Below, in pieces: positions 11,000 to 47,387 of a stretch of 64,000 nucleotides of DNA (positions are counted from its first letter, which is position 1; each line of letters starts with the position of its first letter). Origin of the DNA: a virus (taxonomy: Duplodnaviria > Heunggongvirae > Uroviricota > Caudoviricetes); the IMG/VR virus record IMGVR_UViG_3300042564_004737. One strand, given 5' to 3'. A program made the position numbers and the translations under genes. The notes beneath the pieces are model-generated. The model made no database searches, was not told the DNA's origin, and saw only the letters and a list, made by a program, of their open reading frames with translations.

Positions 11000-11875
11000 T
11001 CACACTTCCACTGTGAGCAGTTTGAAATCACTGGCAGCAGGTTCGTGATTGATGTAGCCGCGTGGATTGCATAACACTCTGGTTTTGCCAATTGTGTAGT
11101 CAAATGGGTGATGTGTGTGCCCGTGCGTCCACAGTCGAATCTGCGGATGATCTTCAATAAACGCATCCAGCTCAGAACTGTAGGCACCGTTCATCAAAGT
11201 CGCATTGGCATACTGTGCATGTGTGCTGAGTCTGCTGGGTGCATGATGCCCTGCCACCACAAACTTTTGATCTGCTCGACCTTCGACACAGTGCTGAATG
11301 TAGGCCACAGATTGACGATGTTGTTCTACAGAATCCTCTGGGCTGAATCTAGCTGGCCGAGTTTTAAAAGTTGGTTTGTCGGGATTGTCAACATCATCAA
11401 AGGTTCTATAATTGACATTTCTGGTGCTGTTGCTGATGATCCTAAAATCGTTCATCATGCTGCTCATGTGGTACAGTGTGAGTGAGTCTTCACGATTCAT
11501 GTCGGTCCACAGTGTGCCGCCAATGAAAGTGATGTCATCAATGACCACTGTTTCTTTTTCCAACACATGCACATTTTTGAGGTAGCCCAACACATCTTTT
11601 AGGTGTTTTTCTGTTGTGGCAAAGTCTCCGTTGTAGTGCTCATGATTGCCCATGATGTAGATCACATGCGGAAACTGTGCAGAGCAGCGTTGCATAAAGT
11701 CATGATAACGATTGCTGCGATATTCTGGACCCATTATTCCATACGGATCCTGTTGCGTAATGTCCCGGGCCACAAGGATGTCGCCGGACAATATCAAGAC
11801 TTGTGCGTTTTGGTCATTGACGATTTCCAAGTCACCGAACTCTAGGTGAATGTCACTTGCTACTGCTATCTTCAT
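11000..11875 (-). CDS. Calcineurin-like metallophosphoesterase
   Basis: SDIHLE, GDI, GNHE, HHAP, HGHTH motifs. Confidence 0.9.
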   Translation of the reverse strand: MKIAVASDIHLEFGDLEIVNDQNAQVLILSGDILVARDITQQDPYGIMGPEYRSNRYHDFMQRCSAQFPHVIYIMGNHEHYNGDFATTEKHLKDVLGYLKNVHVLEKETVVIDDITFIGGTLWTDMNREDSLTLYHMSSMMNDFRIISNSTRNVNYRTFDDVDNPDKPTFKTRPARFSPEDSVEQHRQSVAYIQHCVEGRADQKFVVAGHHAPSRLSTHAQYANATLMNGAYSSELDAFIEDHPQIRLWTHGHTHHPFDYTIGKTRVLCNPRGYINHEPAASDFKLLTVEV

Positions 11876-11887
11876 GTTTGTTGTGCG

Positions 11888-12664
11888 TTAACGATTATAA
11901 GTTTTTTCGTCTATATAATCTGGGTTGATGTGGGAAAAATCAAGATCAATACTGTTTGCTTGTTTTTCTAATTGTAACACATTTTGCATCCATTCTGCAA
12001 GCTGAGTTTTACCAAACTGTCTGCCAGCGCCAACACTGCGGCGTGCTTCGTTGATCTGCTGTTGTATCTGCTCACCAATGCCTAACTTTTTATCAAACAT
12101 TGCTCGAATTGCCGGATCTGGTTGTCCGTACAGATCAGCAATGACCTGATCCTTGTCATGGTCATTGCCTTTGATATACATGCTGCGTATTTCACTGGCA
12201 CTGTTGGCATCTACTCCGTTTACTTGGAAGTTGATGGTGGGAGTGATGGCCACATAACCGTGTTTGGTCATGGGCTTTACGCCTTTGCCAGTCTTGGGCA
12301 GTGGTTGCAAATAACCTGGCGTGCCGTCTTTTTTTGGAGCAAAGTTGAAGCGTTCAGCGTCTTTGGCACTGACTGCAAATACCAATGCTGTTTTGTTTTT
12401 TTCGTCGTCGGACAGATTACCAGTGATTTCTGTTGCTTGATAAGGATTCTTCACATTGGCAATGTGGCTAGCCGGAACACCCAACTTGGTCATCATCATC
12501 ACTTTGTCACTGTAATTGAACGGACTGGTGATGGGTGCCTGCACATTGCTGGTGGCAATATACACGCTATTTTCTCCAAACTTTTTAGTCAGCCAATCAT
12601 AACTGGCCATATGACCGCGGTGAAATGGATGAAAACGACCAGGGTAGATTACAAGATAATTCAT
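11888..12664 (-). CDS. HxGH-family nucleotidyl(cytidylyl/adenylyl)transferase
   Basis: YPGRFHPFHRGH, NPY, NSASEIR; TAAATA (12672-12677) 7 nt upstream. Confidence 0.8.
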   Translation of the reverse strand: MNYLVIYPGRFHPFHRGHMASYDWLTKKFGENSVYIATSNVQAPITSPFNYSDKVMMMTKLGVPASHIANVKNPYQATEITGNLSDDEKNKTALVFAVSAKDAERFNFAPKKDGTPGYLQPLPKTGKGVKPMTKHGYVAITPTINFQVNGVDANSASEIRSMYIKGNDHDKDQVIADLYGQPDPAIRAMFDKKLGIGEQIQQQINEARRSVGAGRQFGKTQLAEWMQNVLQLEKQANSIDLDFSHINPDYIDEKTYNR

Positions 12665-13667: not shown

Positions 13668-14357
13668 TTATCCTTGTACGATGGTATTTGTCTTTTTTAT
13701 CAAACGAGAGTTGATCAAGCTCAACATGGTCAAACAAGCAGCGTCATTATGATCAATGAAATAGTAAGGTTCTGTCCATTTGAACGGCTGTGTTGTCCAA
13801 TCGGCCAAACAGGGACTCAGTCTGAAATCAGCACGGTTATTGTTTAAGAACTGCACAATCGATTGCTTTTGCTGATCGGTCAGTTTTGCTCTTGCAAAAT
13901 AGCTGCGATACTGATGTTGTGGATTCTTCAATGTCACAGTGTCTCGCACACGATCAATCACGGCCTGTTTATAATTGACCCATGCAAAATGACCCACAGC
14001 CAACAACTGATCAAACAACACAGCATCGTTTGTGTACAGACGAATGTTGCCCCATTCCACTAGCAATTTGAAAGGATATGCAGTGTCTATCAGCAGTTGA
14101 CAAATTTTGTGTAAATTGTCAATTACATCAGCGGGCATGCCGGGGTTTCTGGCAGACAGCAGGGGGGTGTGATAGGTGCGGCGCATCTGTACCACTTCAT
14201 CTATCCACTTGTGTGTGAGCCGTCGCAGACAAGTGGCTTCGCTAAGGCCAGCGGTCATGCAATACCTGTATTGATCGAAAAATAAGCGATCTCTACTGAC
14301 GGATTGAAATTCAGACAGCAGGGGCATCGAGTAAAATATATCCTTTTCCGTCCACAA
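13668..14357 (-). CDS. Hypothetical protein
   Basis: 229-aa ORF tiling after clpA; start uncertain (14327 possible). Confidence 0.65.
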   Translation of the reverse strand: MWTEKDIFYSMPLLSEFQSVSRDRLFFDQYRYCMTAGLSEATCLRRLTHKWIDEVVQMRRTYHTPLLSARNPGMPADVIDNLHKICQLLIDTAYPFKLLVEWGNIRLYTNDAVLFDQLLAVGHFAWVNYKQAVIDRVRDTVTLKNPQHQYRSYFARAKLTDQQKQSIVQFLNNNRADFRLSPCLADWTTQPFKWTEPYYFIDHNDAACLTMLSLINSRLIKKTNTIVQG

Positions 14358-16584
14358 TTGGCAGGGGACCAGTCAGCGGTTTGGTCACAAACATCAGCTC
14401 GTCAGCAACCATGATGGCCAATATAGAACAGTCTTTGATCTGATCAAACAGTATGCGCTTGCTGAGCGGAACACGAATCAGTTCGTCAATCTTGCGACTC
14501 AGCGGTCTAGCACCCATCTTGGGATCGTATCCTTTTTCCGACAGCATGTTGATAACACTTTCATCAAACATCAGCTTGATGTTCTTGGCGTACAGGCTCT
14601 GCTGTAGTTCTCGTGTGAACTTGACCACAACTTTCTTGATGGCCAATGGATCCAACTTGTTGAACTTGCACACAGCATCAATGCGGTTACGCAGTTCCGG
14701 CTTGAAGAAGTCTTTCATTGCACGATCTTCTTCGCCGTATTTTTCCAACGATTTGCCAAAGCCAATGTTGTTGTTTTCATTGTCTCTGGCACCTAAATTA
14801 CTGGTCATGATGATGATGCAGTTTTTAACATCAACTGATTTGCCACTGCTGCCAGTAATTTTGGCTTCGTCCAGCATCTGCAACATGATGTTGACCACGT
14901 CAGGATGTGCCTTTTCAATTTCATCAAACAGCAGCACACTGAATGGGTTCTTGGATATGTCACTGATCAATTTGCCGCCGCCCACATTGCCGTCATCAAA
15001 GCCCACATAGCCCGGCGGTGCACCAATCAAGCTGGCAATGCTGTGCTTTTCCTGAAACTCGCTCATGTCATATTTCAGCAGGTGCATGTCAAGATTCTCT
15101 GCCAGCAGCTTGGCCAATTCTGTTTTGCCTGTGCCAGTTGGACCCAGGAACAAAAAGCTGGCCACCGGCTTTTTGGGATTGCCAATGCCAGAGAAGTTGA
15201 TGTACACTCGTTCCAGCACAGTGTCAATTGCTGCATCCTGCCCGTACAGGAATTGTTTGACATTGCTTTCAAGTTCGGTAATTTTGATACTGCGTTCGTT
15301 TTGCAAGCGGTCCAGTGGAATACTGGTCACACGGCTGACCTGTGCCATGATCATGTGTTTGTTCACTGTGACTGTGCCTTGATCCAACACTCGCTGTGCA
15401 GCACAGGCACCGTCCAGCAGATCAATTGACTTGTCAGGATTCTTACGATCGTGTATGTAGCGTCCACTCAGTTCCACTGCTGCACACATGGCGTCTGTGT
15501 CAATCATCACATTGTGGAATGATTCCAGTCTAGGGCTGATGCCAATCAGGATCTGCTCAGTGGTGGCAGCATCCGGCTCACCAATGGTGACTCTGTGAAA
15601 ACGGCGCATTAGCGCACGATCACGCTCGAATGATTCGTAGTATTCTTCCCAGGTGGTACTGGCAATCACTTTCAAGTTGCCACTGGTGATGGCCGGTTTG
15701 ATCATGTTGGCAAAGTCCAGACTGCTGGATCCACTGGCACCCGCACCCATCATGGTGTGTGCTTCGTCAATGAACAGCACACAGTTCTTCTTGGTTTTCA
15801 ATGCTGTGATAACATCTTTGAACTTTTCTTCAAACTCGCCGCGATACTTGCTGCCAGCCAACAGGGATCCAATTTCCAGTCCCCAAACTTCTGCACCTTT
15901 GAGAAACTCTGGCACAGAGCCAGCATGAATTTCTTGTGCCAGTCCGTCAATGATGGCAGTTTTGCCCACACCCGGATCGCCCACCATCAGCACATTGGCC
16001 TTGAACTTGCGGGCCAGCACAGTGATCATTTCTTCCAGTTCGGCTGTGCGCCCAATCATGGGTTCAAGTTGACCTTCGGCTGCTCTGCGACTCAAATTGA
16101 CACAGTGTTCTTCAAGAATTTCGTCGGCCTTGGCGCTGGTCAATTCCACATCAGTGATGTTGTAATTCTTTTGGAAGAATTCAGCAAATTCTGTTTTGCG
16201 AACATTATACTTCAACAAGTAGTAATGTGCATGGCTGTTGGTTTCAGACATCATGGCCAAATACAAGTCCAACAAGGTAATTGTTCTACGGCCCGTGAAC
16301 AGTACCTGTGTCAGCGCCCGATTAAACACTCGCTCCAGTGCATTGGTTTTGCGTGGGGGATCTGTGCGGTCTGTCAACAGGCTGGTTTGACTCTGCAGGT
16401 AGTTGTGCAATTCAGATTCTAGTTGTTCAACTGGTGTTCCGTATTTTTCTAGTATTTTGCGGAACGATGGATACTGTACCATGGCCAGCAGCACATGTTC
16501 TGTCAGCACATATCCGTGTTTGTGTCCCACAGCAATGGCAGTGGCGTTGTTGACTACAGCATCGATTTCTGGATTATTTTGCAT
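14311..16584 (-). CDS. clpA: ClpA-like ATP-dependent Clp protease ATP-binding subunit
   Basis: Clp N-domain, Walker A GDPGVGKT and GPTGTGKT, KYRGEFEE, FIDEAH, FDEIEKAHP, IGF loop, GARPL; no ClpB middle domain. Confidence 0.9.
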   Translation of the reverse strand: MQNNPEIDAVVNNATAIAVGHKHGYVLTEHVLLAMVQYPSFRKILEKYGTPVEQLESELHNYLQSQTSLLTDRTDPPRKTNALERVFNRALTQVLFTGRRTITLLDLYLAMMSETNSHAHYYLLKYNVRKTEFAEFFQKNYNITDVELTSAKADEILEEHCVNLSRRAAEGQLEPMIGRTAELEEMITVLARKFKANVLMVGDPGVGKTAIIDGLAQEIHAGSVPEFLKGAEVWGLEIGSLLAGSKYRGEFEEKFKDVITALKTKKNCVLFIDEAHTMMGAGASGSSSLDFANMIKPAITSGNLKVIASTTWEEYYESFERDRALMRRFHRVTIGEPDAATTEQILIGISPRLESFHNVMIDTDAMCAAVELSGRYIHDRKNPDKSIDLLDGACAAQRVLDQGTVTVNKHMIMAQVSRVTSIPLDRLQNERSIKITELESNVKQFLYGQDAAIDTVLERVYINFSGIGNPKKPVASFLFLGPTGTGKTELAKLLAENLDMHLLKYDMSEFQEKHSIASLIGAPPGYVGFDDGNVGGGKLISDISKNPFSVLLFDEIEKAHPDVVNIMLQMLDEAKITGSSGKSVDVKNCIIIMTSNLGARDNENNNIGFGKSLEKYGEEDRAMKDFFKPELRNRIDAVCKFNKLDPLAIKKVVVKFTRELQQSLYAKNIKLMFDESVINMLSEKGYDPKMGARPLSRKIDELIRVPLSKRILFDQIKDCSILAIMVADELMFVTKPLTGPLPIVDGKGYILLDAPAV

Positions 16585-16613
16585 TGTGTCTTTCGTGAGT
16601 ATTCAATTAAAGT

Positions 16614-16642
16614 ATTATACTACGATCTAAACTTTAGATCAA
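16614..16642 (-). promoter_or_regulatory. Sigma70-like promoter for clpA with overlapping palindrome
   Basis: TTGATC-17-TATAAT; GATCTAAA-C-TTTAGATC at 16624-16640. Confidence 0.55.
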
Positions 16643-17427
16643 CCAACAGTTGTTCGTTTTTGTTCTATCATATTTAACAAATCTTCGGGTATGTGATCGG
16701 GAATAACAGCCTGTACCTGCACAATTATATCGCCTGGGCCAGTTTTGCTGGGCAGTCCACGACCCCTTAACCGTAATCTACTACCGGGCTGTGTGCCCCG
16801 CGGTATTAGAATGGTTATCTCTTCGTTGAACAGGTCCCGGACCACAGATTCACCACCCACAATCAGATCCCAAATATTCACCAACTGTTCGGTATGTAAA
16901 TTTGCTCCTTGCCGTTGCCATTTGGGATCGTCGCGAACGCTGAATGTTATTATCAAATCTCCACCACCCGGAGCAATGCCTTTGTACTGCACACTATCGC
17001 CTTGATTGATACCTGCGGGTATGTCTATTTCGATAGTGTTGGCTTGCCCGTGGCCCAGCCCAATGGTGCGTTTGCCACCAGTGGCCACGTCAGTTAGACT
17101 GATGGTCAGTCCTACTCTGCTGATGACTGTTTGTGGTCGCTGCCTAGTGCTCTGAGTAAACCTAGTGCCAAACACATCAAATATAGTGTCAAAGTCAAAC
17201 TGTTGTCCGCCCGGATGCGGGTGTTGTCCAAAATTGGGCCTAGGGTTATCGTATTGCTGTCGTTTGGCAGGATCGCTTAGGGTGTCGTAAGCAGTTTGTA
17301 GTTCTTGAAACTTGGCAGTGTTGCCACCTTTGTCGGGATGATGCTGAGAAGCCAGCTTGCGATAGGCTTTTTTTATTTCATCCGGAGTGGCAGTACGGGC
17401 AACATCAAGTGTTTTGTAGTGATCCAT
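16639..17427 (-). CDS. dnaJ: DnaJ/CbpA-type co-chaperone without zinc finger
   Basis: J domain with HPD (HHPDKGG), G/F region, C-terminal DnaJ domains. Confidence 0.9.
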
Positions 17428-17821: not shown

Positions 17822-18319
17822 TTAAAGTTCAGGTTTTTGTGCAGGCGCCGGCCCAGATCCAAATGTCTGTGATGGTGCTGTTGAGACCGGAGTTGTACCC
17901 CAGCTAGGGGCTGGTGCAAAACTTGTGCTGGGTGCATGAGGGCCAAAGCCCCCAGTAGTGGCACCAAATCCTGTTGATGGTGTGCTGGTTGTTGTAAGCC
18001 CAGGCGAAAAGCCTGTTGGTGGTGTTTGTATTCCGCCATTGTTGGCTCCACCAAGTTTTTCTTGTGTACGACCATATGCAGCAACCCCTAGCACCGCGCC
18101 CATGGCCAGGTGAAATAGTCCTGCACCTTGCAGTGTCAATGGACTCCACTGAGTAACAGGTTGTTTGAGTAAGGTCTGCAGCAGGCTCCACAGAATTGGG
18201 AATATTACAAAGTCAGTCACACAGGTCAGCATGTACATCCAACCCATGGCTGGACGCCATTTTGAGTTCATCCAGTCTTCTTTTTTTGTTTCGCTTGCGC
18301 TTTTTAGTTCTTCACTCAT
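17822..18319 (-). CDS. Putative holin (3TM holin-like) with Pro/Gly/Thr-rich tail
   Basis: WRPAMGW followed by hydrophobic helices; last gene of lysis cassette. Confidence 0.65.
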   Translation of the reverse strand: MSEELKSASETKKEDWMNSKWRPAMGWMYMLTCVTDFVIFPILWSLLQTLLKQPVTQWSPLTLQGAGLFHLAMGAVLGVAAYGRTQEKLGGANNGGIQTPPTGFSPGLTTTSTPSTGFGATTGGFGPHAPSTSFAPAPSWGTTPVSTAPSQTFGSGPAPAQKPEL

Positions 18320-18585
18320 TTTGCTGCCTTTTCAAAAATATTTTTTTGTATTTTATACCAATCATTCCAGGCATCGACTTTGACTGCACATTCATAGTAT
18401 GTGGTATAGTTGATGGTGATTGTTTTAGATACTTCGCTTAGTTTGGGATCCTGCGGTAGTTGCTGTAATGCAGGGCATGTTTGTGTTGCAATCGCGCCCG
18501 GGGCGTCGGGAAATTTTGCAGAGACTGGCACTGTTGTGCCACAGGCCTGTAATAGTACTACTGATAGTAATAATAGATATTTCAT
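18316..18585 (-). CDS. Outer-membrane lipoprotein spanin (Rz1-like)
   Basis: Lipobox LLQA-C, Pro-rich, follows i-spanin. Confidence 0.75.
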   Translation of the reverse strand: MKYLLLLSVVLLQACGTTVPVSAKFPDAPGAIATQTCPALQQLPQDPKLSEVSKTITINYTTYYECAVKVDAWNDWYKIQKNIFEKAAK

Positions 18586-19064
18586 TTCTTTGCCTCAACC
18601 GGAGTAGCAGAGTCATTGTGTGCTTTGACAAATTCTTTAGGTATTTCACATACACCACCAGGTAAAAATTTTGTATCATACTTGACAACTTCTCGATCAA
18701 TATATTGAACAACATCTTGACCACGCCGCTGAACAACTTCGGTTTTCTTGACAACTCGTTCTACAATTTTTACAGTTTCTTTTTTGCTTTCAGCTTCGGC
18801 CGCAGCTAACTTGGCTTCTACTTCTTTTACCTTGTCACGCCAGATCATTTCAGTAGTGTAGCCACCTTTAAAGTACACGCCAGCCAACAGCACAACTATA
18901 CTGCCAATTTGCAATGCTTTGTAGTATGGCGCCAATGGCGGAAAAAATTGTAAAATCTTATTGAGAAAGAAACAGAATAAAACTGTGCTAACGGCGCCAG
19001 TTATTAATACTGCATTGACTACGAACTGTAAAAAACTGTCTGAAAAGAAATGCAGTAACCACAT
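18582..19064 (-). CDS. Inner-membrane spanin (Rz-like)
   Basis: N-terminal TM segments then coiled coil; between endolysin and o-spanin. Confidence 0.7.
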   Translation of the reverse strand: MWLLHFFSDSFLQFVVNAVLITGAVSTVLFCFFLNKILQFFPPLAPYYKALQIGSIVVLLAGVYFKGGYTTEMIWRDKVKEVEAKLAAAEAESKKETVKIVERVVKKTEVVQRRGQDVVQYIDREVVKYDTKFLPGGVCEIPKEFVKAHNDSATPVEAKK

Positions 19065-19065
19065 G

Positions 19066-19680
19066 TTATAGTCCTAGTACATGCAGTGCGTGTTCGTAGT
19101 GCTTGATGCGATCTTCTAGACCAATGGTGCCGCCGTTGATGCGTTTGGTCAGTGTAACAATATCGCCCTTGTCAGCCCATTGGTTTAGATTATTTGTTTC
19201 CCAGAACCAACAGGCACTTTGCACTGCACCTTCAAATGTGGCCAGATATGCTGGCACATCTTCCACAGCCATTTCTACACTTTCGGCAAATGCTTGATAG
19301 TTGTCTTTGCCTGTGAGCTGAATTAGGCCACGACCGCAATAGCGATATCCGTCACCAGATGCTTCGTCACCATTGCCCATTCTGTTGGCATACACACGGT
19401 TGGCAATCATGGATTCTTTGTGTGCATACTGTTCGGCCACTGAATCACTGGTGAAATATTTGGCAAAAACACGGCGTAGAGATTCTTTGCGATAGTTTAA
19501 ATTTTCACTCAGCGCAGTAAACCCTGCACTTTCATGGGCGCATTGTGCTAAGAATCCGCTGACTCGCTGCGGAGTATCTATGCCGTAGTCGGGTAAGATT
19601 TTGTTTAGTGCTTCGGTCCATTGCGAAACATATGGATTGCTGGGTATGATTTGTTGCAGTTGTGCAGTGCTGATTTGCAT
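19066..19680 (-). CDS. GH19 endolysin
   Basis: FLAQCAHESAGF, RGRGLIQLTG-like motif, TKRINGG. Confidence 0.9.
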   Translation of the reverse strand: MQISTAQLQQIIPSNPYVSQWTEALNKILPDYGIDTPQRVSGFLAQCAHESAGFTALSENLNYRKESLRRVFAKYFTSDSVAEQYAHKESMIANRVYANRMGNGDEASGDGYRYCGRGLIQLTGKDNYQAFAESVEMAVEDVPAYLATFEGAVQSACWFWETNNLNQWADKGDIVTLTKRINGGTIGLEDRIKHYEHALHVLGL

Positions 19681-20023: not shown

Positions 20024-20461
20024 TTATGCTTCCGGGAATATTCTGCCAGTCAGACTGAATCTCGTCTGCCCTGACTCAACACCGTCAACACTGTGATAGC
20101 TGTCTGCTTTGAGCAAATGCCAACGATTGCATTCAATTTTATAACTGTGTGTGAGATTTTTGTCATCATCATAAAATCTAGTGTAAACATTGTCGCCGCC
20201 TGTGTTGATCAAGTAAATTAACTTGGTCAGTGTGACATTATCTTTGTGCATTGGTTGATCTCCAGTCATGATCTGAAACCCCCAATACATAGTGTCGCAT
20301 ATATTTTGTTGACACCAGCGGTTAACTTCTTCGTTAAAATCGTCACTCCACACATAGACTTTATTCAATGGATTGGCCTTTGTTTTATATTGACCAAAGT
20401 CTCGATTTAACCGAGACATGATATCAACAGGGATAGCAGGAAGATTTAAATATCGAATCAC
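20024..20461 (-). CDS. Fe(II)-dependent DSBH dioxygenase-like protein
   Basis: HKD...H (SYHSV)...R pattern. Confidence 0.65.
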   Translation of the reverse strand: MIRYLNLPAIPVDIMSRLNRDFGQYKTKANPLNKVYVWSDDFNEEVNRWCQQNICDTMYWGFQIMTGDQPMHKDNVTLTKLIYLINTGGDNVYTRFYDDDKNLTHSYKIECNRWHLLKADSYHSVDGVESGQTRFSLTGRIFPEA

Positions 20462-21312
20462 GACAGTCCCATACTTTTTCTGATATTTGTAGCGCTGATG
20501 CTGGTTACTGTTTCGTCAAATGTTTCTTCACCTGATGTGTAGCCTACTCCGCGGCCCCAGCCAATGTGTACAATGTTGGGCACCACTTGTATTTCATATT
20601 GTCCTTGGAACAATGGATCTAGATCACGCCGTATAAAATTCTTGACCTGTTCGATTGCAAACGGATTAGATCCTTGCCAACCTTGCACATCACGCACTTG
20701 AATAACAACCTGTCCTGTTCGAGCAATTAGTCTTTCAAACAGGGCTCGATGCCCGGCATGCCACGGTTGCCAGCGGCCCAGCATCTGCACCGTTTCTCGT
20801 TGCCAGTCAAACCGCGGTCTCCTACGATTATACAAAATGTGATCGCCTACAAACTCTGCCCATTTTTCAGCATGTTGTTCTGTGATTCTAAAATCGTACT
20901 GTTCAGGTGGAACAAATGCCTTATTAGTATCTTCAAACCGGCCAGCATCAATAGTGTCCATCCATATGGTCCAGTCAGCTTTGAAGTTGTTCCTCATCTC
21001 CACCAGCGGTGCCACAAAGTCACAGATTACAAAGTCTCCGGAACATCGCACAGCAAAATCAAACATTCTAATACTTTGTCTAATACGGCCTTCGCGACTG
21101 AAGTCCCAGTCGTTGTATTGTTTGCGAATTTCGTCTGCGTTGAACCAGTCAACTTTGCTAGTGTATGTCAATGGTGGGTGTTCTAAATTTACCATACGAC
21201 TCACTGGCATAGTAAGTGTATTAGAATTTTCTTCTAAATATTTTTTAAGTGCGGTTGCAAAGAATGTTTTGCCCGAACCTGGTAAGCCCATTACTAATAT
21301 GCGTTGTGTCAT
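20458..21312 (-). CDS. Adenylylsulfate kinase-like domain fused to HxGH nucleotidyltransferase
   Basis: GLPGSGKT, NADEIR, FSREGRIRQ (CysC-like); C-terminal LGRWQPWHAGH and ISAT.IR. Confidence 0.75.
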   Translation of the reverse strand: MTQRILVMGLPGSGKTFFATALKKYLEENSNTLTMPVSRMVNLEHPPLTYTSKVDWFNADEIRKQYNDWDFSREGRIRQSIRMFDFAVRCSGDFVICDFVAPLVEMRNNFKADWTIWMDTIDAGRFEDTNKAFVPPEQYDFRITEQHAEKWAEFVGDHILYNRRRPRFDWQRETVQMLGRWQPWHAGHRALFERLIARTGQVVIQVRDVQGWQGSNPFAIEQVKNFIRRDLDPLFQGQYEIQVVPNIVHIGWGRGVGYTSGEETFDETVTSISATNIRKSMGLS

Positions 21313-21337
21313 GTTAACTCCTTTGATAATTGTCTTT

Positions 21338-22024
21338 TCATACTGGATATGTTACCAGTGGTCCTGCTAATTTGAACATTTCTCGAGTCTTGTCTGTTTT
21401 GAGTCCGGTAACTTGCAATACTGGACGCATACTGCGACTGGCATTGGCAGTGGCATGCGGAACATTGGCCCAGTCAAACACATGCACATCGCCTGCTCGC
21501 CATCTTGAGTAGGTTGTTGTACCATACAAGTAAAACTGTCCGGGTTCCCAATCTGTCAGCATAACACTCATACGGATAACACGCTCGGGATTGTCGGGAC
21601 AGCGTTCTTGCAACTTGTCAATATGCAAATTAAACATTTGACCCGGCTGCTGAAAGTGCATGCGAATTTTGGGATCTTCTATTCCAAAATAATTGCTCAT
21701 CTTTGTCAGTGTGGGAAATGCACTGATGTCAAATACTGCATCGGTCAATTGCAGATCAACTGGTGCACCTGTGTCGCGCAAATCGTTTTGCTCCTGTGCC
21801 AACATGGGACTAACTGTGTCATCATCATTACTGTAGAATTTACGAGTGGCCCAGGTAATGGGCTGGCCTTGTGCCTGCTGTACTTCGTCTGTCCAATTAC
21901 CTACAAAGCGTCCCAGCACTTGAAACCATTCGCCAGTTTTTTCAACTCGACGATTGTCAAAGTGATAATTGCTGTGGTCAACACACCATTGCCAACTGCT
22001 GTTGTATTCGGCTTGATTTTTCAT
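21338..22024 (-). CDS. 2OG-Fe(II) / Asp-beta-hydroxylase-like oxygenase
   Basis: Start corrected to MKNQAE (ATGA overlap). HID...PHATAN...R.VLQ. Confidence 0.75.
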   Translation of the reverse strand: MKNQAEYNSSWQWCVDHSNYHFDNRRVEKTGEWFQVLGRFVGNWTDEVQQAQGQPITWATRKFYSNDDDTVSPMLAQEQNDLRDTGAPVDLQLTDAVFDISAFPTLTKMSNYFGIEDPKIRMHFQQPGQMFNLHIDKLQERCPDNPERVIRMSVMLTDWEPGQFYLYGTTTYSRWRAGDVHVFDWANVPHATANASRSMRPVLQVTGLKTDKTREMFKLAGPLVTYPV

Positions 22025-22647
22025 ATTACTGTTACTGTTATGTCCGATGCTGCATAATTTTGCCAATGTTCTTCTGGCGGCAGTGCAATGCCCAAGGTCT
22101 TGCATAATTGCTGATTGTTTGAAACCTGTTGCGGATTGTGACTATCAGCTATGACCTGGTCAATGCAGTGATTCTGCTGTTTGATTTGTACTGCCATGTT
22201 TTTTAAATCAACATAGTAGTTATCATACCGGGGGTATGTGATGTTAAAATGACCGCATTTGACCCACCATCCTAGGCAGGCATCATTACTGCGTTGCACC
22301 AATACTATGGGTGATTCGGGAAATATGGCTCGTAGAAAATCAATGTGGTTGCAAAAGATATGGCTCTTGATAATTCGTATTCCGGTTGCATTTTTATCAA
22401 ACGGATAGTCAAAACTTTCTTCAAGCTGCGGACGGCTCAACACAGTGAGATCTTCGGGCAGTGGGCATGCCATGCCAGGATCCCAGTATGCTCCCAGGTG
22501 CATGAGTTCACGCTGGCCCGATGCATCATGCCAATAGGTCCATTCATCACGATAGTCCGAGCGATCGATACTGGCGCTGTAGTAGATGTTTTTGCTCACG
22601 CTGCTCCATTTAGAACCCGGCGCACCAGCTAGAAAAATATACTTCAT
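22021..22647 (-). CDS. Sulfotransferase-like P-loop protein
   Basis: IFLAGAPGSKWS (5'-PSB-like), IIKSH, IVLVQR...WW (3'-PB-like); motifs are divergent. Confidence 0.55.
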   Translation of the reverse strand: MKYIFLAGAPGSKWSSVSKNIYYSASIDRSDYRDEWTYWHDASGQRELMHLGAYWDPGMACPLPEDLTVLSRPQLEESFDYPFDKNATGIRIIKSHIFCNHIDFLRAIFPESPIVLVQRSNDACLGWWVKCGHFNITYPRYDNYYVDLKNMAVQIKQQNHCIDQVIADSHNPQQVSNNQQLCKTLGIALPPEEHWQNYAASDITVTVI

Positions 22648-23597
22648 TCGGGTTTGATCCGTCGAGCAACTGGTTGCCAGGTCTGTTGTAGTCGTGCCAT
22701 ACTGGCACGGACACCAGCCGGTGTATGTTCAACAGGGGTTGTGTACATCATGTTTTCTCGAAACTTGGCCGCAGCTTCGGCTGATCGTATAGCAGGAACA
22801 AAATTATCTTGATACCATGTTTGTATTTCTTGAGGAGTACCGGGTGGTAATACCATGTTCCAGCAGCCATGAATACTGAGCCCTGGTGCAGCCTTGCTCA
22901 TTAGTGGAATATTTTCCAATCCTGCTAGTGGTTGAGTATCAGCAATTCCAATGAATTTGAGTTTGCCTGCTTTGACCAGCGGGTATCCCACAGCCACAGG
23001 AGTTACACCAAACTCCACATGCCCGCCCATGACATCTAGCAAGGCCTGTGCAGGACCTTTGTACATTATAGTTTGCAGGTTGTCACTGCCGGGTACACTT
23101 ACTTTGTCCACAAGATATTCCACTGCCAGTTTGTGACCGCCACCTCCTATAGCCACTGACATTTTTTGCCGATTGCGAATGGCTGCAACAAATTCTTCAG
23201 GGGTGTTAATCTTGCTCGAAGGATGCGCCCAGAATGCCAAGGGACTGCGAGCAATGTTGGCAATGGGTTCTAGGTCCATGGGATTGTACTTGATCATGTT
23301 GAGATACCATACTTCGGGTGTGACCCAGTTTGACTGGCAAGCTGGCACTGCAATGGTATGTCCGTCTCGCGGCACTGTTACAAAGTGATTGATAGCAATG
23401 TTGCCATCCGCACCTGGCCGGTGTTCTGCCTTGAATACGATACCGGTCTTTCTTTCCACAATGTCAGCCACAATACGGAATGATATTTCATTGCCGGCAC
23501 CGGGTCCATTGGGGTAGACAACTGTGACGGGCTTGGTGGGTTGCCAAGCTGCCGCCATTAGCGGGGCCAGCAGAAGTGATACTAGTAATTTTTTCAT
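22644..23597 (-). CDS. tctC: Bug/TctC tripartite tricarboxylate transporter substrate-binding protein
   Basis: Signal peptide, P..GAG.., RPGADG.I, YKGPAQALLDVMGGHV, GTP..I. Confidence 0.85.
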   Translation of the reverse strand: MKKLLVSLLLAPLMAAAWQPTKPVTVVYPNGPGAGNEISFRIVADIVERKTGIVFKAEHRPGADGNIAINHFVTVPRDGHTIAVPACQSNWVTPEVWYLNMIKYNPMDLEPIANIARSPLAFWAHPSSKINTPEEFVAAIRNRQKMSVAIGGGGHKLAVEYLVDKVSVPGSDNLQTIMYKGPAQALLDVMGGHVEFGVTPVAVGYPLVKAGKLKFIGIADTQPLAGLENIPLMSKAAPGLSIHGCWNMVLPPGTPQEIQTWYQDNFVPAIRSAEAAAKFRENMMYTTPVEHTPAGVRASMARLQQTWQPVARRIKPE

Positions 23598-23612: not shown

Positions 23613-23674
23613 TAAATAGTTATGATGAATTACAGCAAGATAAGAAATTTTTTATCTCCTTGTAATTTTATTTA
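23613..23674. promoter_or_regulatory. Face-to-face late promoter cores
   Basis: TAAATA on plus at 23613-23618 and on minus at 23669-23674, between divergent genes. Confidence 0.5.
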
Positions 23675-23694
23675 TCAAACAACGGAAAAATTTA

Positions 23695-24432
23695 ATGAAT
23701 ACCAAGATTTTTAATCTAATTAAAGAAAATTTAGAGATTGCCTTTAATCTAGCCAAGTACTCCAAAATTTGTGCAGACATTACAGAAAACACAGTAGTGG
23801 ATCAATTGCCATGGACACCAGTCCGCTACAGAAAATTCAAAGATGCTGTGGAAGCAAAACTGGCCATGGAAGATTGCGATTTCACCGGCACCTTGATCAG
23901 CATTGTGGACACACTGAGTGAACGTTATACCAATCGATTTTTTAGAGAAATTTGGCGCCCGCGCACCGGTGACTACGACTATACAGGCTGGGCGCTGGCA
24001 GAAGAAATTCAAAAGCAAAATCCCAAATCTGTACTGGATGTGGGCTGCGGTTATCATCCGTTCAAGGGCCGCATTGACAATTTAATTGGCATCGATCCGT
24101 ACAATCATGCTGCGGACTTTGAAGTAGATATTTTAGATTACCGAGTCAAACCCAGCAGTCATGATCATATTATTGCACTGGGATCTATCAATTTCAACAG
24201 CCGGGATGAGATCGAAGCACGATTTGCTCACTGTGTGAACTTGCTCATGCCTGCAGGCAAATTTTACTTGAGAGCCAATCCCGGCATCACACACAAAACA
24301 GGACCGTATGTGGATATATTCCCATGGAACTTTGAAATAGCCAATGAGTTTGCTGAAAAATACAATCTAAAATTGTTGGAGTTCAAACGCGATGCTAATG
24401 ATCGTTTGTATTTTGTGTATCAAAAACTTTAA
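23695..24432 (+). CDS. Class I SAM-dependent methyltransferase with N-terminal carrier-protein-like domain
   Basis: VLDVGCG, IGIDP, IIALGS.NF motifs; N-terminal ITENTVVDQLPWTP. Confidence 0.8.
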   Translation: MNTKIFNLIKENLEIAFNLAKYSKICADITENTVVDQLPWTPVRYRKFKDAVEAKLAMEDCDFTGTLISIVDTLSERYTNRFFREIWRPRTGDYDYTGWALAEEIQKQNPKSVLDVGCGYHPFKGRIDNLIGIDPYNHAADFEVDILDYRVKPSSHDHIIALGSINFNSRDEIEARFAHCVNLLMPAGKFYLRANPGITHKTGPYVDIFPWNFEIANEFAEKYNLKLLEFKRDANDRLYFVYQKL

Positions 24433-25099
24433 TCATTAACTGGCCAGCTGCTGCATGTGCCTGCTCCAATGGATGTCCTACACTAGTGATAGGGTATCCA
24501 TTTTTTTTGCTCCATTGTTGTAGGGTCAGGCCGTCAAATTGGGTCATGTGCGGACGAATATAGTCTTGTATATCTGTTATTGCTGGAGTAGTATGCCACC
24601 GTTTATCAAACATCAAGTCGTCCATGTATGTCATTATAAATGGACAATTTTTTTGTTTAAGTGTGTCCACCACTAACTTGACGCTCATCAAAGTTGTTAG
24701 TTTATCACGAAGCTCTGAATGCAACTGTTTGTAATAAATTTTTGATATATCCGTTTCGTCGATAGGCATAAGCGTAGCCCATTCATTCCATTCATTGTCA
24801 TAAAATTTATTTGGATTGTCTAGCATGAAATAGTCAAACCGGTCAATGAACGACCAATTTATAACAAACAATGCCTGTTCATTGGTGGCCAAATGCGTTA
24901 GTGCTCGTTCAGCAATTTGTAAATTACCTGCGCCTGGCCTTGCGTAGCACAAATAATTATAGTTCAAATGGCGTGCTAGGTGTGCTGGCCATGTTGATTT
25001 ACTGTGTTTTGGGTTGCGGCCAACAGTTTTATCCCACAAAACTTCGTCACTCAATTCACTGCCATAGATAAAACTACAGCCAAAACTTTTTAGATTCAT
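24395..25099 (-). CDS. SGNH/GDSL-hydrolase-like protein
   Basis: FGCSFIYG, GAGN, C-terminal HPLEQAH; paralog at 43089. Confidence 0.7.
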   Translation of the reverse strand: MNLKSFGCSFIYGSELSDEVLWDKTVGRNPKHSKSTWPAHLARHLNYNYLCYARPGAGNLQIAERALTHLATNEQALFVINWSFIDRFDYFMLDNPNKFYDNEWNEWATLMPIDETDISKIYYKQLHSELRDKLTTLMSVKLVVDTLKQKNCPFIMTYMDDLMFDKRWHTTPAITDIQDYIRPHMTQFDGLTLQQWSKKNGYPITSVGHPLEQAHAAAGQLMIKVFDTQNTNDH

Positions 25100-26297: not shown

Positions 26298-27554
26298 TTA
26301 TTTCTTTTCAAAAACCCATAGATCTTCAAAATTTCCACCCACAGTTTTCTTGGCCTGTCTAGTACCGCTGATGGCGCTCCATTGCACTCTGTACTGCGAG
26401 CTCAGCGGCAAATGTTTGAGCACTACATCTCGCATGTCTTGGCTGATCTGCACTTCTTGTTTGGCTTTGTTTCGATAGTTGGAAATGACAAAGCCAAACT
26501 TGGCACCGGGTCGCAGCACTTCGCAGCACAGTTTAACTGTTTCTTCCCAATAGCCTGTTAGCCAATCCTGGTAGTTGGGAAAGTTAGCAAAACTTTGATC
26601 TTTGCTGTCGTAGATTTCCAAATCAAAATACGGTGGCGAAAACAACACTGCATCAACTTGATTTTTATACTTGACATCAAACTGGTGCCGGCTGGCCAAT
26701 TGTTCACTGGGACACAGGTATAAATCTACTGTTTTTTCTGGCAGTTCAAACATGCTGTTGTTTCTAATACTGTTGTATTCAGTGTGCAACAAATTGCCGT
26801 TGTGAACCACACCAGGAATAACATCAGTGGCAACAAAATTCTTCCAGTTGGTGCTGTAAAATCCCAGCTGATAAGCATTCCACCCCATCACCGGAGCAAA
26901 TACAGTATCACCACGGAATACATTTTCCATTATGCCTTTGTAGGTGGCTGGATTAAAGATGCTGGCCCTGTTGGCGCCGATCATAAAGTCCAAACAGAAT
27001 TGTCCGTAGTCATCGTCAATTTTGCAAATATGATCAAAAAAAGCCGGTGCTGCCAGACTGTTTCGTATCTTGAACTGTTCAAACATTATTTTCAGCAGTC
27101 CAAAACAAAATTCACTATCGTTGTTGTAGAGTTTTTTGGTATTGTAAAATGTTTCAAAATTGATATTTTTACAAACTCTGCCGTATTTGCTGTTTGTTCT
27201 TCCGCTGAAAGTGGTTCCGTTGAATATGTTGTTGTTGGGAATGTCAAAGTAAAATTTCAAATCGTTGGTCATTGATCCATAACGACGGAACCATTCTGCC
27301 AGTGCTTTTTCTGGCTCCAGCACCAGCATCCGGTACATTTTTTGTTTGTACAAATCCAGTCGTTGTTTACGATTGTCTTTCTTTGCCACACGATCAATGA
27401 ATGTGTCAATATCGCTTCTCACTGCAAAATTGCCAGTTTTGTCACTGATGTCCAACACCGACAGTTGTTTGCAAAAATCCTCGTAAGAAATCTGTTTGTT
27501 GAATGTAAACAGCGCTAGAAAATCATCCAGTGTAAAAATTAATTGTTGTGTCAT
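26298..27554 (-). CDS. Amino-type (m4C/m6A) DNA methyltransferase
   Basis: Motif IV SPPYF, motif I-like VFAPVMGW, LRPGAKF. Confidence 0.75.
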   Translation of the reverse strand: MTQQLIFTLDDFLALFTFNKQISYEDFCKQLSVLDISDKTGNFAVRSDIDTFIDRVAKKDNRKQRLDLYKQKMYRMLVLEPEKALAEWFRRYGSMTNDLKFYFDIPNNNIFNGTTFSGRTNSKYGRVCKNINFETFYNTKKLYNNDSEFCFGLLKIMFEQFKIRNSLAAPAFFDHICKIDDDYGQFCLDFMIGANRASIFNPATYKGIMENVFRGDTVFAPVMGWNAYQLGFYSTNWKNFVATDVIPGVVHNGNLLHTEYNSIRNNSMFELPEKTVDLYLCPSEQLASRHQFDVKYKNQVDAVLFSPPYFDLEIYDSKDQSFANFPNYQDWLTGYWEETVKLCCEVLRPGAKFGFVISNYRNKAKQEVQISQDMRDVVLKHLPLSSQYRVQWSAISGTRQAKKTVGGNFEDLWVFEKK

Positions 27555-31536: not shown

Positions 31537-32019
31537 TTATTTTGCCAGCAATACTTTTTCATTTTCGGCAGCCACCACACGCCTGCGCAGGCTTGAACTG
31601 GAGAATGAATGATCTCGTCCGTTGAATACCAGTTCAATTCCTCGCATGGCACCTTGATCTCGACCAGTAAAATCCTTTTCTTCGTATTCGACACCGAGAA
31701 TACGCACATCTACAGGAAGAATCAACAGCAGGTCCACAAGATCTCGTTCAGTTTGATACACTACAACTTCATCCACATAGCGGCATGCACTCAATTGTAT
31801 CTGTCGTTCCACAATGCTTTGTATGGGTGCATTTTTGGTGCCAGGTCGATCAATTGTGGGATCAGTTTGCAAGCCACATATCAAATAGTCACAGTGATTC
31901 TTGGCTTCTGACAGCATGGCAATGTGGCCTGCATGCAACATGTCAAAGGTGGAAAAGGTGATGCCAATCTTTTTGCCATCGGCCTTGAGCTGTTTGATGT
32001 GATTAAAAATCATGTTCAC
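31537..32019 (-). CDS. TagD-like cytidylyltransferase
   Basis: FDMLHAGH, ER..QL.AC.YVDEV, SSSSLR. Confidence 0.8.
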   Translation of the reverse strand: MNMIFNHIKQLKADGKKIGITFSTFDMLHAGHIAMLSEAKNHCDYLICGLQTDPTIDRPGTKNAPIQSIVERQIQLSACRYVDEVVVYQTERDLVDLLLILPVDVRILGVEYEEKDFTGRDQGAMRGIELVFNGRDHSFSSSSLRRRVVAAENEKVLLAK

Positions 32020-43088: not shown

Positions 43089-43799
43089 TTAGTCCAACGC
43101 TTGTGCATATCTATCTATCCACAACTCACAAGCTGCAATATGTGCATCTTCAAGCGGATGCAGGCCAACTTTGGTAACCTCAAATCCCTTGTTATAACTC
43201 CAGTCAATAAAATTTTGACCTTCAAACAGTTCTAAGTTTGGTTTGACCAATGCTTGTAATTCTTTTACATAGTCAGGAGAATGAATATCATATTCTTGGT
43301 CAAACATCATATAATCCATATATGTTTGTATACTGTTGATATTTTTACTTTTTAAATATGATTGCACAGCAAATATGGTCTGTAAGTTTCTAAACTTGTT
43401 CCACAGAATACTACTGTTAGCACGATGTTTATAAAAATCTATCATGTCTTCTGCCTGCGTGTGTGATACAAGATCTTTTAGTTTTTCCGGAACACAAGTT
43501 GGGCCCAGTGTAATCCATGTTTCGGCTTGTCCAATGTAAAAGTCCCATCGGCTACACCAGGTCCAATTAATTACTGCCAGTGTGTCCTCCACCGGATTAT
43601 TTGCAACATATGAATATATCTGTCGAGCAATATGATCGTTGCCACACCCGGGAATAGAAAATGTTTTGTACGCAACACCTAGTCTAGTTGCAGCTCTGCC
43701 AATCCATCCCAACGACCCATCATTGTTGTGTTGTTGCTCGGATCCGAACACAAAACTGTCACCAAAACTTACTATTTTTTTATCTGACAGATTAAACAT
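43089..43799 (-). CDS. SGNH/GDSL-hydrolase-like protein
   Basis: FGDSFVFG, GCGN, HPLEDAH; paralog at 24395. Confidence 0.7.
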   Translation of the reverse strand: MFNLSDKKIVSFGDSFVFGSEQQHNNDGSLGWIGRAATRLGVAYKTFSIPGCGNDHIARQIYSYVANNPVEDTLAVINWTWCSRWDFYIGQAETWITLGPTCVPEKLKDLVSHTQAEDMIDFYKHRANSSILWNKFRNLQTIFAVQSYLKSKNINSIQTYMDYMMFDQEYDIHSPDYVKELQALVKPNLELFEGQNFIDWSYNKGFEVTKVGLHPLEDAHIAACELWIDRYAQALD

Positions 43800-45349
43800 T
43801 ATATTAAATTTCTAACAGCTTCTAGTTCAGGAATGTAATCAGCCAAGCGAACTCCTCTTGCTCGATCCAATTGGTCGTTGTAATTAAAAAATGCTCGAAG
43901 TTCATTGATATTGCAAGTTGGATTACCAGAGTAGTGCGTATATATGCTGTCTATTGCAGTTTTACAACTTTTTCCATTGGACAGATAAGTTGAAGTATTC
44001 ATACATCGCTGCATAGACTCCATCACTAGGGCTGCGTTGGGATGATTGTATACCGATTGCCAGGGCAAATAATTTATTTGCAAATAAACAGCAGTGAACG
44101 GGAATTCACGATCCAAGAACTCAAACAACAGATGTAGATTGGTCACATTGTATATTCCTGGCACTGTGTTTATGCTGATAAAGTGTCCCTGCGACTGCAA
44201 CAACTTTGCATTGGCTATGACTGTGTCCCATTGACTTCCGGATCTCCAATAGTCATTTACATGAGCAAATCCGTCAATGCTGAAACTGAAATTTGTGTTG
44301 GAAAAATTAGAAACCAACTTTAGAAACTTATCTGATATTTTGACACCATTGGTACACATGGACAGTTGAAAATCTGTTTTATTTTTCTCCACACAGCGTT
44401 GCATAAATTCCAACACCTCGGGCATGATTGTGGGCTCGCCACCTTGAAAATACACTTGACTTTTCTTGTCTAGCTTGTTGATGTCAATTTGATCTATGGA
44501 TGGAGTAGCAGGATCCCACTGAAGTCTGGCCGGAGGTACAATGTTGAACTTTTTTGATTCGATTCCAATTGGATTACTAAACACTGGCTGGCATCCTCTA
44601 CATTTGATGTTGCAGTGATTTCCCAATGATATTTCATAATAATAAGGTCGCTCAATTTTCTTCAAGTCATCAACAGAGTCAAGGTCCAGTTGCGAAACCC
44701 AATCCAAAGTTTCAAACTGTCTGTAGCTTTCAATACCAAGATCCTCGTATTTGTAACAGACACTGCAATGTTCCGGCAGCCGAGTGCCTTCCGACATCAG
44801 GTCACGAATGACATTATAGTTGGGGTCTGAGGACCAGTCTTGCAACTGTTCTACTGTGGTTACTTTTTTTGAAGATCGCGCACACAACACCATTTTGTCG
44901 CCAGTGTTGTTGAAATTGATCCAAGGATAGATACAAAAACTTTTATTTTTATTGTAAACTAAATCTTCCCAGTAGAATATTTTCTTTGAATTGGCATTTT
45001 CTCTAAAAATGGTAACTTTTTTTAATTCTTCCAACTGCACCATTAGCTTAAATGTAGCCGACAAGCATTTCCAATGCGTCCACTGTGCCTGCGGTTGATC
45101 CAACATCACAATAATATCAAACTGTTGAGCAAATACTAACAATTTTCCAAAAGGTATATCCGACACTGAGGTGTGATAGTATCCGGGGTCATTGGGTACA
45201 ACTTCAGGATCAGTCAACAAGCCGTGATTGACAATGCTGTTATGTACGCCCAAACCGGATACTTCATGGTCAGTTGACTCGTCGTTGTTGCCTAAAAATA
45301 ATATTTTTTTTGATTGATCTTGCAATTCAACAAATTGATTCATACTCAA
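43799..45349 (-). CDS. Radical SAM protein (SPASM/twitch-like) with N-terminal extra domain
   Basis: CNIKCRGC, GGEP, TNG, FSIDG; extra Cys in FCIYPW...C and CSVC. Confidence 0.85.
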   Translation of the reverse strand: MSMNQFVELQDQSKKILFLGNNDESTDHEVSGLGVHNSIVNHGLLTDPEVVPNDPGYYHTSVSDIPFGKLLVFAQQFDIIVMLDQPQAQWTHWKCLSATFKLMVQLEELKKVTIFRENANSKKIFYWEDLVYNKNKSFCIYPWINFNNTGDKMVLCARSSKKVTTVEQLQDWSSDPNYNVIRDLMSEGTRLPEHCSVCYKYEDLGIESYRQFETLDWVSQLDLDSVDDLKKIERPYYYEISLGNHCNIKCRGCQPVFSNPIGIESKKFNIVPPARLQWDPATPSIDQIDINKLDKKSQVYFQGGEPTIMPEVLEFMQRCVEKNKTDFQLSMCTNGVKISDKFLKLVSNFSNTNFSFSIDGFAHVNDYWRSGSQWDTVIANAKLLQSQGHFISINTVPGIYNVTNLHLLFEFLDREFPFTAVYLQINYLPWQSVYNHPNAALVMESMQRCMNTSTYLSNGKSCKTAIDSIYTHYSGNPTCNINELRAFFNYNDQLDRARGVRLADYIPELEAVRNLI

Positions 45350-47064: not shown

Positions 47065-47066
47065 GT

Positions 47067-47387
47067 TTACTTGAATAAAATACCGGCCATTATCGCAGCT
47101 TGTAGTATGAACCCTATGCCAATGGTCAAGATATTGAGTATGTCTTTGAGTACCACTGCTCGTATGAACAACAACAACAATCCGGTCCATAAAAACAACA
47201 CAATATCCAATCCTGGAGTACGATCAGTTACACCTTTCAACAAGGCCAACAGTGTGGGAATGGTTGAAAAATGAATCAAGATTGCAGCCAGCCAGCCCAG
47301 AGTATCTGCTGTGATCCTGCTGAGTTGAATGGTCACAAACGATTGCACCTGTTCACGAATTTTGTTCATTACATTTTCAGACATCAT
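47067..47387 (-). CDS. 3-TM membrane protein (SemiSWEET/PQ-loop-like)
   Basis: LGWLAAILIHFSTIP followed by two further helices. Confidence 0.55.
   Translation of the reverse strand: MMSENVMNKIREQVQSFVTIQLSRITADTLGWLAAILIHFSTIPTLLALLKGVTDRTPGLDIVLFLWTGLLLLFIRAVVLKDILNILTIGIGFILQAAIMAGILFK

Follow-up and report, generated by a model that had tools for sequence, protein, structure and literature searches.

The locus described here lies in a 64,000-nucleotide stretch of DNA (the window) from the Caudoviricetes record IMGVR_UViG_3300042564_004737, a phage of 340,172 bp with a CheckV completeness of 98%. The original prediction, made from positions 20,024 to 22,647, placed there a minimal synthase of 3′-phosphoadenosine 5′-phosphosulfate (PAPS), co-transcribed with a sulfotransferase-like gene and two Fe-dioxygenases. 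All four open reading frames (ORFs) were present on the minus strand, in an operon of the order tctC, 208-amino-acid (aa) gene, 228-aa gene, 284-aa fusion gene, 145-aa gene (Table 1). The 284-aa protein joins a kinase to a small nucleotidyltransferase domain. We read it as a probable minimal PAPS synthase whose ATP sulfurylase is of an undescribed type; its role would be to supply sulfation, not assimilatory sulfate reduction.

The two domains of the fusion protein

Homologues of the fusion numbered more than 7,900 proteins (1,821 clusters at 50% identity) and included members from cultured Xylella, Xanthomonas, and Stenotrophomonas phages. The protein matched PHROG 10255 ("kinase"; E 1e-40) and passed the cut-off of the Pfam family for adenosine 5′-phosphosulfate (APS) kinase, APS_kinase PF01583 (24 vs 21.1 bits). 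The top five structural matches of residues 1-165 were APS kinases (4rfv: Z 16.8, root-mean-square deviation [rmsd] 1.9, 129 residues aligned), and the next family was gluconate kinase (Z 13.6). Foldseek also ranked APS kinases first, and a family profile of 72 sequences matched APS kinase 2yvu (E 8e-15). The P-loop GxxGxGK[S/T] (G9, K15, T16) was kept in 53 of 55 diverse members; among the same members, the APS-site residues were conserved in 55 (R63), 53 (F71 and R76), 51 (D60), and 50 (P102). Kinase-only homologues occurred in phages (phiRSL1, RsoM2USA, and L173/G556), that of phiRSL1 within a cluster of glycosyltransferase and sulfotransferase genes. Extra domains fused to the kinase in three proteins (P0148, P0175, P0180) had sulfotransferase-like loops and no Pfam match, and were not counted as evidence.

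Residues 171-284 matched phosphopantetheine adenylyltransferase (PPAT; 4nah, Z 10.6) and nicotinamide mononucleotide (NMN) adenylyltransferase (NMNAT; 1f9a, Z 10.2), and contain GRWQPWHAGH at residues 179-188. In an alignment of the small domain (A5), G179, R180, Q182, H185, H188, G253, R254, G257, S273, and R278 were invariant, with the motifs G-R-x-Q, HxGH, G-R, and S-x-T-x-x-R, and R207 was nearly so. HxGH and SxTxxR together form a pyrophosphate (PPi)-releasing, alpha-beta-splitting active site. The consensus YGRDVG, found in 41 of 60 sequences, recalls VGRDHAG of the ATP sulfurylase Sat; the residue after G253-R254 was D in 44 of 69 sequences and G in the phage protein. Scores against NadM were far below the NCBIfam cut-offs (22.7 vs 127 bits). 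After the stretch matched by the profile (strand 3), ~33 residues of NadM correspond to ~8 in the small domain; the missing segment presumably carries the nicotinamide-stacking Trp/helix. NadM is the likely ancestor of the small domain. No match to Sat (PF01747) was found even at E 1. The only Sat chain among the fold matches for residues 171-284 was 1x6v, which has both domains; kinases filled these lists, so that this result excludes nothing. To judge from its sequence, the small domain is neither a member of the Sat family nor a complete NadM.

These results bear out two statements of the original prediction, namely that a CysC-like kinase is fused to an HxGH nucleotidyltransferase and that the motif of the latter is NadM/NMNAT-like, the best matches being of NadM type and all far below cut-off. 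Automatic annotations named the small domain cytidyltransferase, PPAT, or FAD synthase, and a literature search, covering few subscription journals, found no description of it as a sulfurylase.

Genomic partners of the small domain

On a marine bacterial chromosome (P0262/P0405), the small domain was fused to a full canonical APS kinase (PF01583 E 6e-63), and the phage domain was 45% identical to this copy. Elsewhere it adjoined a full-length 175-aa CysC-like gene (TIGR00455 124.6 bits). Such repeated pairing of the small domain with APS kinases of two kinds suggests that APS is the metabolite they share. The small domain and the short kinase were also fused in reverse order (P0223) or encoded by split adjacent genes in either order; because of this variation, the kinase-then-sulfurylase order that the fusion shares with animal PAPS synthases is not evidence of kinship with them.

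The small domain was carried by 8 of 401 alphaproteobacterial genomes. All eight had a kinase beside it, and none had Sat. A sulfotransferase was present in all eight and was adjacent or within 3 kb in three; the figure of eight comes with no class-wide background rate, and the rate in SAR11 (Pelagibacterales) alone was 83/151. In Stellaceae-like soil alphaproteobacteria (L178:7066-10801, L180:7061-10801, L270) the fusion lay beside a flagellar gene cluster, and two such genomes encoded a sulfotransferase of more than 1,200 aa ~31 kb from the fusion on the same contig. Sulfation of flagellin glycans in these bacteria is possible.

In phages, a clear PF13469 sulfotransferase lay within 8 kb of the fusion in 20 loci. 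Recurrent neighbours were sulfotransferase-fold, oxygenase, methyltransferase, SGNH, glycan, and structural genes; a DUF2061 gene occurred in 8 loci, mostly directly after the fusion. The genome of the window phage gave no match to Sat or to PF01507 (CysD/CysH). It encodes TagD/RfaE-type cytidylyltransferases, of sugar-nucleotide synthesis, at 31537-32019 and 58081-58479 (minus strand), the second near a PfkB kinase (57372-58199); the first belongs to the family found most often beside the fusion in other phages (22 loci).

One of the eight alphaproteobacterial carriers was a Pelagibacter. Among 151 Pelagibacterales genomes, the small domain was found in 125, AprA in 125, and Sat and CysD in 5 each. 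The small domain co-occurred with AprA (both in 119, one without the other in 6 and 6, neither in 20; odds ratio 66, Fisher p 1e-14) and was found in 0 of the 5 CysD-bearing genomes (p 1e-4); these counts and p values ignore shared ancestry and come from incomplete assemblies. In six SAR11 genomes, a stand-alone small domain of 126-130 aa was encoded directly before aprM-aprB-aprA on the same strand (AprM assigned by position and a weak QmoC likeness, AprB by TIGR02060 over cut-off), and a TauE sulfite exporter closely followed the block. No APS kinase over cut-off was found in the five of these six genomes that were searched. In nine more genomes, the small domain, or kinase and domain, was convergent with and adjacent to aprA, judged from gene order in two and from coordinates alone in seven. 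The apr-linked SAR11 protein was 52% identical to the phage small domain, and both have the GRGVG variant.

In Allochromatium, sat sits directly before aprMBA (PMC3779200). P. ubique is reported to have AprBA and to lack sat (PMC5069961, PMC10356861); across SAR11, AprBA is reported as highly conserved and ATP sulfurylase as mostly lacking (PMC5069961, PMC10356861, PMC12636525), with aprAB under very strong purifying selection (PMC12636525). On these accounts, AprBA without ATP sulfurylase leaves open the fate of APS in the most abundant marine heterotroph. Taken together, the fusion or coupling to canonical CysC, the co-occurrence with AprA, the exclusion of CysD, and the position before aprMBA give strong comparative support for a sulfurylase. 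The proposal of a minimal PAPS synthase thus gains support of a comparative kind, although its second domain is not a member of the Sat family.

The idea that the small domain always serves sulfotransferases was rejected for SAR11, where its distribution against PF13469 gave p 0.67 (both in 70 genomes, small domain only in 55, sulfotransferase only in 13, neither in 13). A 132-aa HIT-like protein, which could also act on APS, was encoded convergently to the SAR11 block (L301:1142-1540, L302:8836-9234, L303:8694-9092, L305:744-1142). Two SAR11 genomes that keep the small domain also have short Sat genes (344 aa; L307:5914-6948, L308:5204-6238), located in islands of low GC content (22-23%).

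The cassette around the 208-aa gene

Table 1. Features of the phage locus (positions in the window)
Position	Strand	Feature	Basis
20024..20461	-	145 aa, 2-oxoglutarate (2OG)-Fe(II) oxygenase-like	motifs; PF13640 below cut-off
20458..21312	-	284-aa fusion, candidate minimal PAPS synthase	AF2 mean pLDDT 93.9, two domains
20818..21312	-	fusion N-terminal domain, aa 1-165	APS-kinase fold, shortened lid
20458..20802	-	fusion C-terminal domain, aa 171-284	minimal HxGH nucleotidyltransferase, candidate ATP sulfurylase
21338..22024	-	228 aa, 2OG-Fe(II) oxygenase-like	invariant H134, D136, H190, R200
22021..22647	-	208 aa, sulfotransferase-fold protein, loop GAPGSKWS	AF2 pLDDT 88.6, structural matches
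22644..23597	-	TctC/Bug-family periplasmic binding protein, first gene of operon	PF03401 E 3e-24
23669..23675	-	ATAAATA upstream of tctC	possible T4-like late promoter
23695..24432	+	245 aa, methyltransferase-like, divergent	weak Pfam methyltransferase matches, E ~0.1
24395..25099	-	234 aa, DUF6071/SGNH-like, frequent neighbour	PF19547 E 2e-4, below cut-off

TctC and the 208-aa gene share a stop/start overlap, as do the 208-aa and 228-aa genes and, further on, the fusion and the 145-aa gene; directly before the fusion gene there is a 25-nt gap containing AAGGAG. The start of the 228-aa gene follows the gene caller and the stop/start overlap, the longest ORF extending to 22105. The layout suggests that all five genes would be co-transcribed. 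ATAAATA occurs eight times on the minus strand of the window and never on the plus strand, and the copy before tctC may be a promoter for late expression. In two lake metatranscriptomes, 0.09 and 0.06 of the sequence words were present; only short contigs matched, a few of them identical, and these do not establish transcription, co-transcription, or habitat.

We compared 80 related viral loci of the 208-aa gene, with counts that are lower bounds on account of contig ends. The 228-aa oxygenase accompanied it in 78 of them, TctC in 76, and the divergent methyltransferase in 74. Less often nearby were the kinase (31), the small domain (26), and the DUF6071-like gene (21); the 145-aa oxygenase was in none. 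The fixed partners of the cassette are TctC, the methyltransferase, and one oxygenase, and the fusion is an accessory neighbour. The 145-aa gene, a singleton among the kinase loci, is a local insertion outside the conserved module. Of four near-complete phages that carry the cassette, three had a strong copy of the small domain, in two of them (G553, G554) far from the cassette; the fourth gave a weak match only. The four genes first proposed do lie in a tight layout; the operon starts further upstream than supposed, at the TctC gene, and the four do not form one conserved unit.

Both proteins first called Fe-dioxygenases carry the expected motifs, but neither passes a family cut-off. In the 228-aa protein, the HxD...H triad and the 2OG-binding Arg were invariant in nine sequences; it had no Pfam match, and an Asp/Asn beta-hydroxylase cluster was among its Atlas neighbours, at 0.96. 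The 145-aa protein matched PF13640 at E 0.002 and has H72-x-D74, H123, and R134. Sequence searches of the PDB found no significant match for either the 208-aa or the 228-aa family.

The top six VIA matches of the AF2 model of the 208-aa protein were sulfotransferases (TPST1 5wri: Z 11.1, rmsd 3.3, 161 residues aligned); PF13469 was matched only at E 0.054. Within the family, K94-S95-H96 is invariant and R119 near-invariant; these we take to be the catalytic and 3′-phosphate positions of sulfotransferases. The fold thus agrees with the sulfotransferase-like assignment, but the canonical PAPS-binding Lys/Arg of the P-[K/R]-S-G-[T/S] loop is missing. The protein has P10-G11-S12-K13-W14 instead, in which K13 may replace the canonical residue. 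Because of this non-canonical 5′-phosphosulfate loop, use of PAPS by the 208-aa protein is only slightly more likely than not, and its role as local client is less probable than synthesis of APS and PAPS by the fusion.

A possible alternative, to which we give less credence, is that the fusion makes PAPS and was inserted by chance into the operon of a separate cassette for solute uptake and tailoring, whose 208-aa protein is a kinase-like or ligand-binding P-loop protein. The difference of GAPGSKWS from GxPRSGT, a UMP/CMP kinase as best Foldseek match (E 0.01), the 54 of 80 loci with no fusion domain near the cassette (some cut by contig ends), and the many other contexts of the fusion speak for it. 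On the other side, six sulfotransferases outrank kinases in the VIA list, the conserved K94-S95-H96 and R119 fall at presumed sulfotransferase sites, and G553 and G554, with no fusion near the cassette, hold a strong domain copy elsewhere. This alternative is compatible with the fusion being a PAPS synthase.

Other genes were noted near the cassette and beyond it. The N-terminal 75 residues of the divergent methyltransferase resemble, as a sequence impression only, a helical domain of acyl-carrier-protein type that lacks the conserved Ser. A ClpA/B-type AAA chaperone and DnaJ (14311-17427, minus strand) lie beside GH19 endolysin and holin-like genes (17822-19680). A DNA-methyltransferase-like protein (PHROG 498, E 2e-6) is encoded at 26298-27554 (minus strand), and a radical SAM protein (PF04055 E 2e-11) at 43799-45349 (minus strand), adjoining a paralogue of the 234-aa DUF6071-like gene. 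A second tailoring locus of the same genome (L310:1844-7385; G000 314.8-320.4 kb) encodes a UDP-glucose/GDP-mannose dehydrogenase, an SGNH protein, an oxygenase paralogue, a 417-aa sulfotransferase-like protein on the opposite strand, and a 305-aa protein with an amidinotransferase-like start; it gives a weak hint of a glycan product. The pair of SGNH and 417-aa genes follows the fusion in related phages. In a marine cyanophage-like record with psbA (L174:3489-8804), a homologue of the 208-aa gene occurs with methyltransferase-like and amidinotransferase-like genes.

Predicted reactions and comparison with known systems

In the reaction scheme that we propose for the fusion, the ~110-aa domain would bind ATP through HxGH and SxTxxR and transfer the AMP moiety to sulfate, with APS and PPi as products. 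It would be an ATP sulfurylase built on a NadM-like scaffold after deletion of the NMN-binding segment, with the invariant R180, Q182, and R254 and the nearly invariant R207 as likely ligands of sulfate and nucleotide. The N-terminal domain, whose fold is that of APS kinases, would then phosphorylate the 3′-OH of APS to give PAPS. Phosphorylation of APS to PAPS pulls the unfavourable ATP sulfurylase step. Third, and least firmly, PAPS would supply phage sulfotransferase-fold proteins, at this locus the 208-aa protein; sulfation would probably occur late in infection, with a small molecule or surface glycan as target. In SAR11, the small domain most likely works in reverse behind AprBA, converting APS and PPi to ATP and sulfate. 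More broadly, and with some reserve, we favour the view that the small domain is a third and smallest type of ATP sulfurylase, one that arose from the scaffold of an NMN adenylyltransferase, separately from both Sat and CysD; that it serves thousands of aquatic phages, as part of a mini PAPS synthase, in driving their own sulfation; and that most SAR11 finish sulfite oxidation to sulfate with it, gaining ATP.

Several observations weigh against this interpretation, besides the loop of the 208-aa protein and the limits of the SAR11 counts given above. In the kinase, the first Asp of the DGDN motif is replaced (N58-A-D60; Asn in 39 and Asp in 12 of 55 members); both Asp residues of this motif have been reported essential in human PAPSS. 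The conserved D98 may stand in for the missing one. The lid is ~24 residues shorter (34 vs 58 residues between flanking motifs), the RDPKGLY...FTG segment being absent and R125-x-x-D-T-N-x-x-F133 in its place. Residues 1-165 would work like an APS kinase yet miss two defining features of canonical CysC. In the small domain, sequence and fold matches are to NadM and PPAT, not Sat; the profile matched NadM first (1f9a E 5e-12), over ~77 positions only. The QxRN motif of Sat is absent, with G-R-x-Q-P instead, and hhalign of the profile against two divergent Sat sequences gave a probability of only 2.5%. As to distribution, four of the eight alphaproteobacterial carriers also had a CysD match, all five Sat-bearing SAR11 genomes retain the small domain, and Xylella phage Sano and Stenotrophomonas phage DLP6 have the fusion with no annotated sulfotransferase nearby. 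A NadE gene in the window (46270-47190, minus strand; PF02540 E 6e-52) likewise belongs here.

That gene, the NadM matches, the automatic names, and the failure to find NadD in one SAR11 genome with a stand-alone domain (G552) would suit a stripped adenylyltransferase of NMN or nicotinate mononucleotide (or another cofactor) for rebuilding NAD; the kinase would act on a pyridine or adenine nucleotide, and the whole would be a reversed NadR-like enzyme. We consider this unlikely. Most of the NadM segment between strand 3 and the C-terminal part is gone, NadD and CoaD are separate genes in 4 and 5, respectively, of five SAR11 genomes checked, and neither NAPRTase nor Nampt was found in the phage genome, where NadE lies 25 kb away. 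A 258-aa GRFHPFHxGH protein (11888-12664, minus strand; PF01467 E 7e-7), beside whose gene lies that of a calcineurin-like phosphoesterase (11000-11875, minus strand), is a better NMNAT-like candidate. The AprA linkage, aprMBA position, CysD exclusion, and fusion to canonical CysC would also be left unexplained.

The comparative evidence indicates APS and leaves the co-substrate unfixed. The small domain might therefore hydrolyse APS, merely bind it, or act as an APS:phosphate adenylyltransferase (APAT; product ADP), with the phage kinase making PAPS from host APS; the kinase-only phage genes and the coexistence of the domain with CysD or Sat in some genomes fit such a role. It is nevertheless improbable, since both parts of the PPi-releasing site are invariant in the small domain and the exclusion of CysD in SAR11 suggests the same reaction. 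To our knowledge, APAT enzymes are of HIT/GalT type and not HxGH. Phage cysC is common, is transcribed in lakes, and in freshwater phages has been read as an auxiliary gene boosting host assimilatory sulfate reduction (PMC10914622; bioRxiv 2021.01.05.425418), a role with which the DUF2061 neighbour agrees; for the fusion this is very unlikely, because it ignores the second domain, the phage genome has no PAPS reductase family match, and the recurrent neighbours are those of tailoring and structural genes listed above.

If the small domain is indeed a sulfurylase, then wherever it stands in for sat or cysDN, sulfate activation and sulfite oxidation are underestimated in pathway surveys. Many of the genes called "cysC" in phages would encode complete PAPS synthases and serve sulfation by the phage, not host cysteine synthesis. 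The SAR11 sulfite-oxidation pathway, reported as incomplete, would be closed, and the candidate sulfurylase gene there (124-126 aa) is the one currently named "cytidyltransferase". For biotechnology, so small a PAPS synthase (284 aa) would be a useful means of supplying PAPS.

Phage "cysC" has already been published, and the papers handle the gene as a plain kinase; the second domain of the fusion apparently has not. The phage kinase shares with CysC (PF01583, TIGR00455) the P-loop, the APS-site residues, and the fold, whereas its TIGR00455 score was 17.5 against 138.7. The small domain has in common with NadM (M. jannaschii 1f9a, Francisella 2qjt) the GRxQPxHxGH motif, the NP motif, and the fold (Z 10.0-10.2), but shows a ~25-residue deletion in the NMN-binding region and an invariant or nearly invariant R207 and GRxVGY that are not typical of NadM. 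Like Sat/Met3 (PF01747), it has HxxH and SxTxxR, and its GR[D/G] loop after strand 4 recalls theirs; unlike them, it has no GxxKxxD loop and no Sat N- or C-terminal domains, and its HxxH-to-SxT spacing is 82 residues, compared with 143 in Sat. The 208-aa protein shares a fold with TPST1 5wri and Stf9 2z6v (Sulfotransfer_3; Z 9-11, identity ~15%) and differs in its phosphosulfate loop and in its consistent pairing with TctC, methyltransferase, and oxygenase. The closest parallel to the whole fusion is offered by the bifunctional PAPS synthases (human PAPSS1/2, 1x6v; Aquifex Sat-APS kinase, 2gks), which likewise combine an APS kinase with an adenylyltransferase of the HxGH superfamily and match the phage kinase fold at Z 15.4-15.7. 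The domain order of the phage fusion is that of animal PAPSS, while relatives are reversed or split. With its shortened lid and a second domain of ~110 aa that is not Sat, the phage protein comprises 284 aa, compared with 546-630 aa in the known enzymes.

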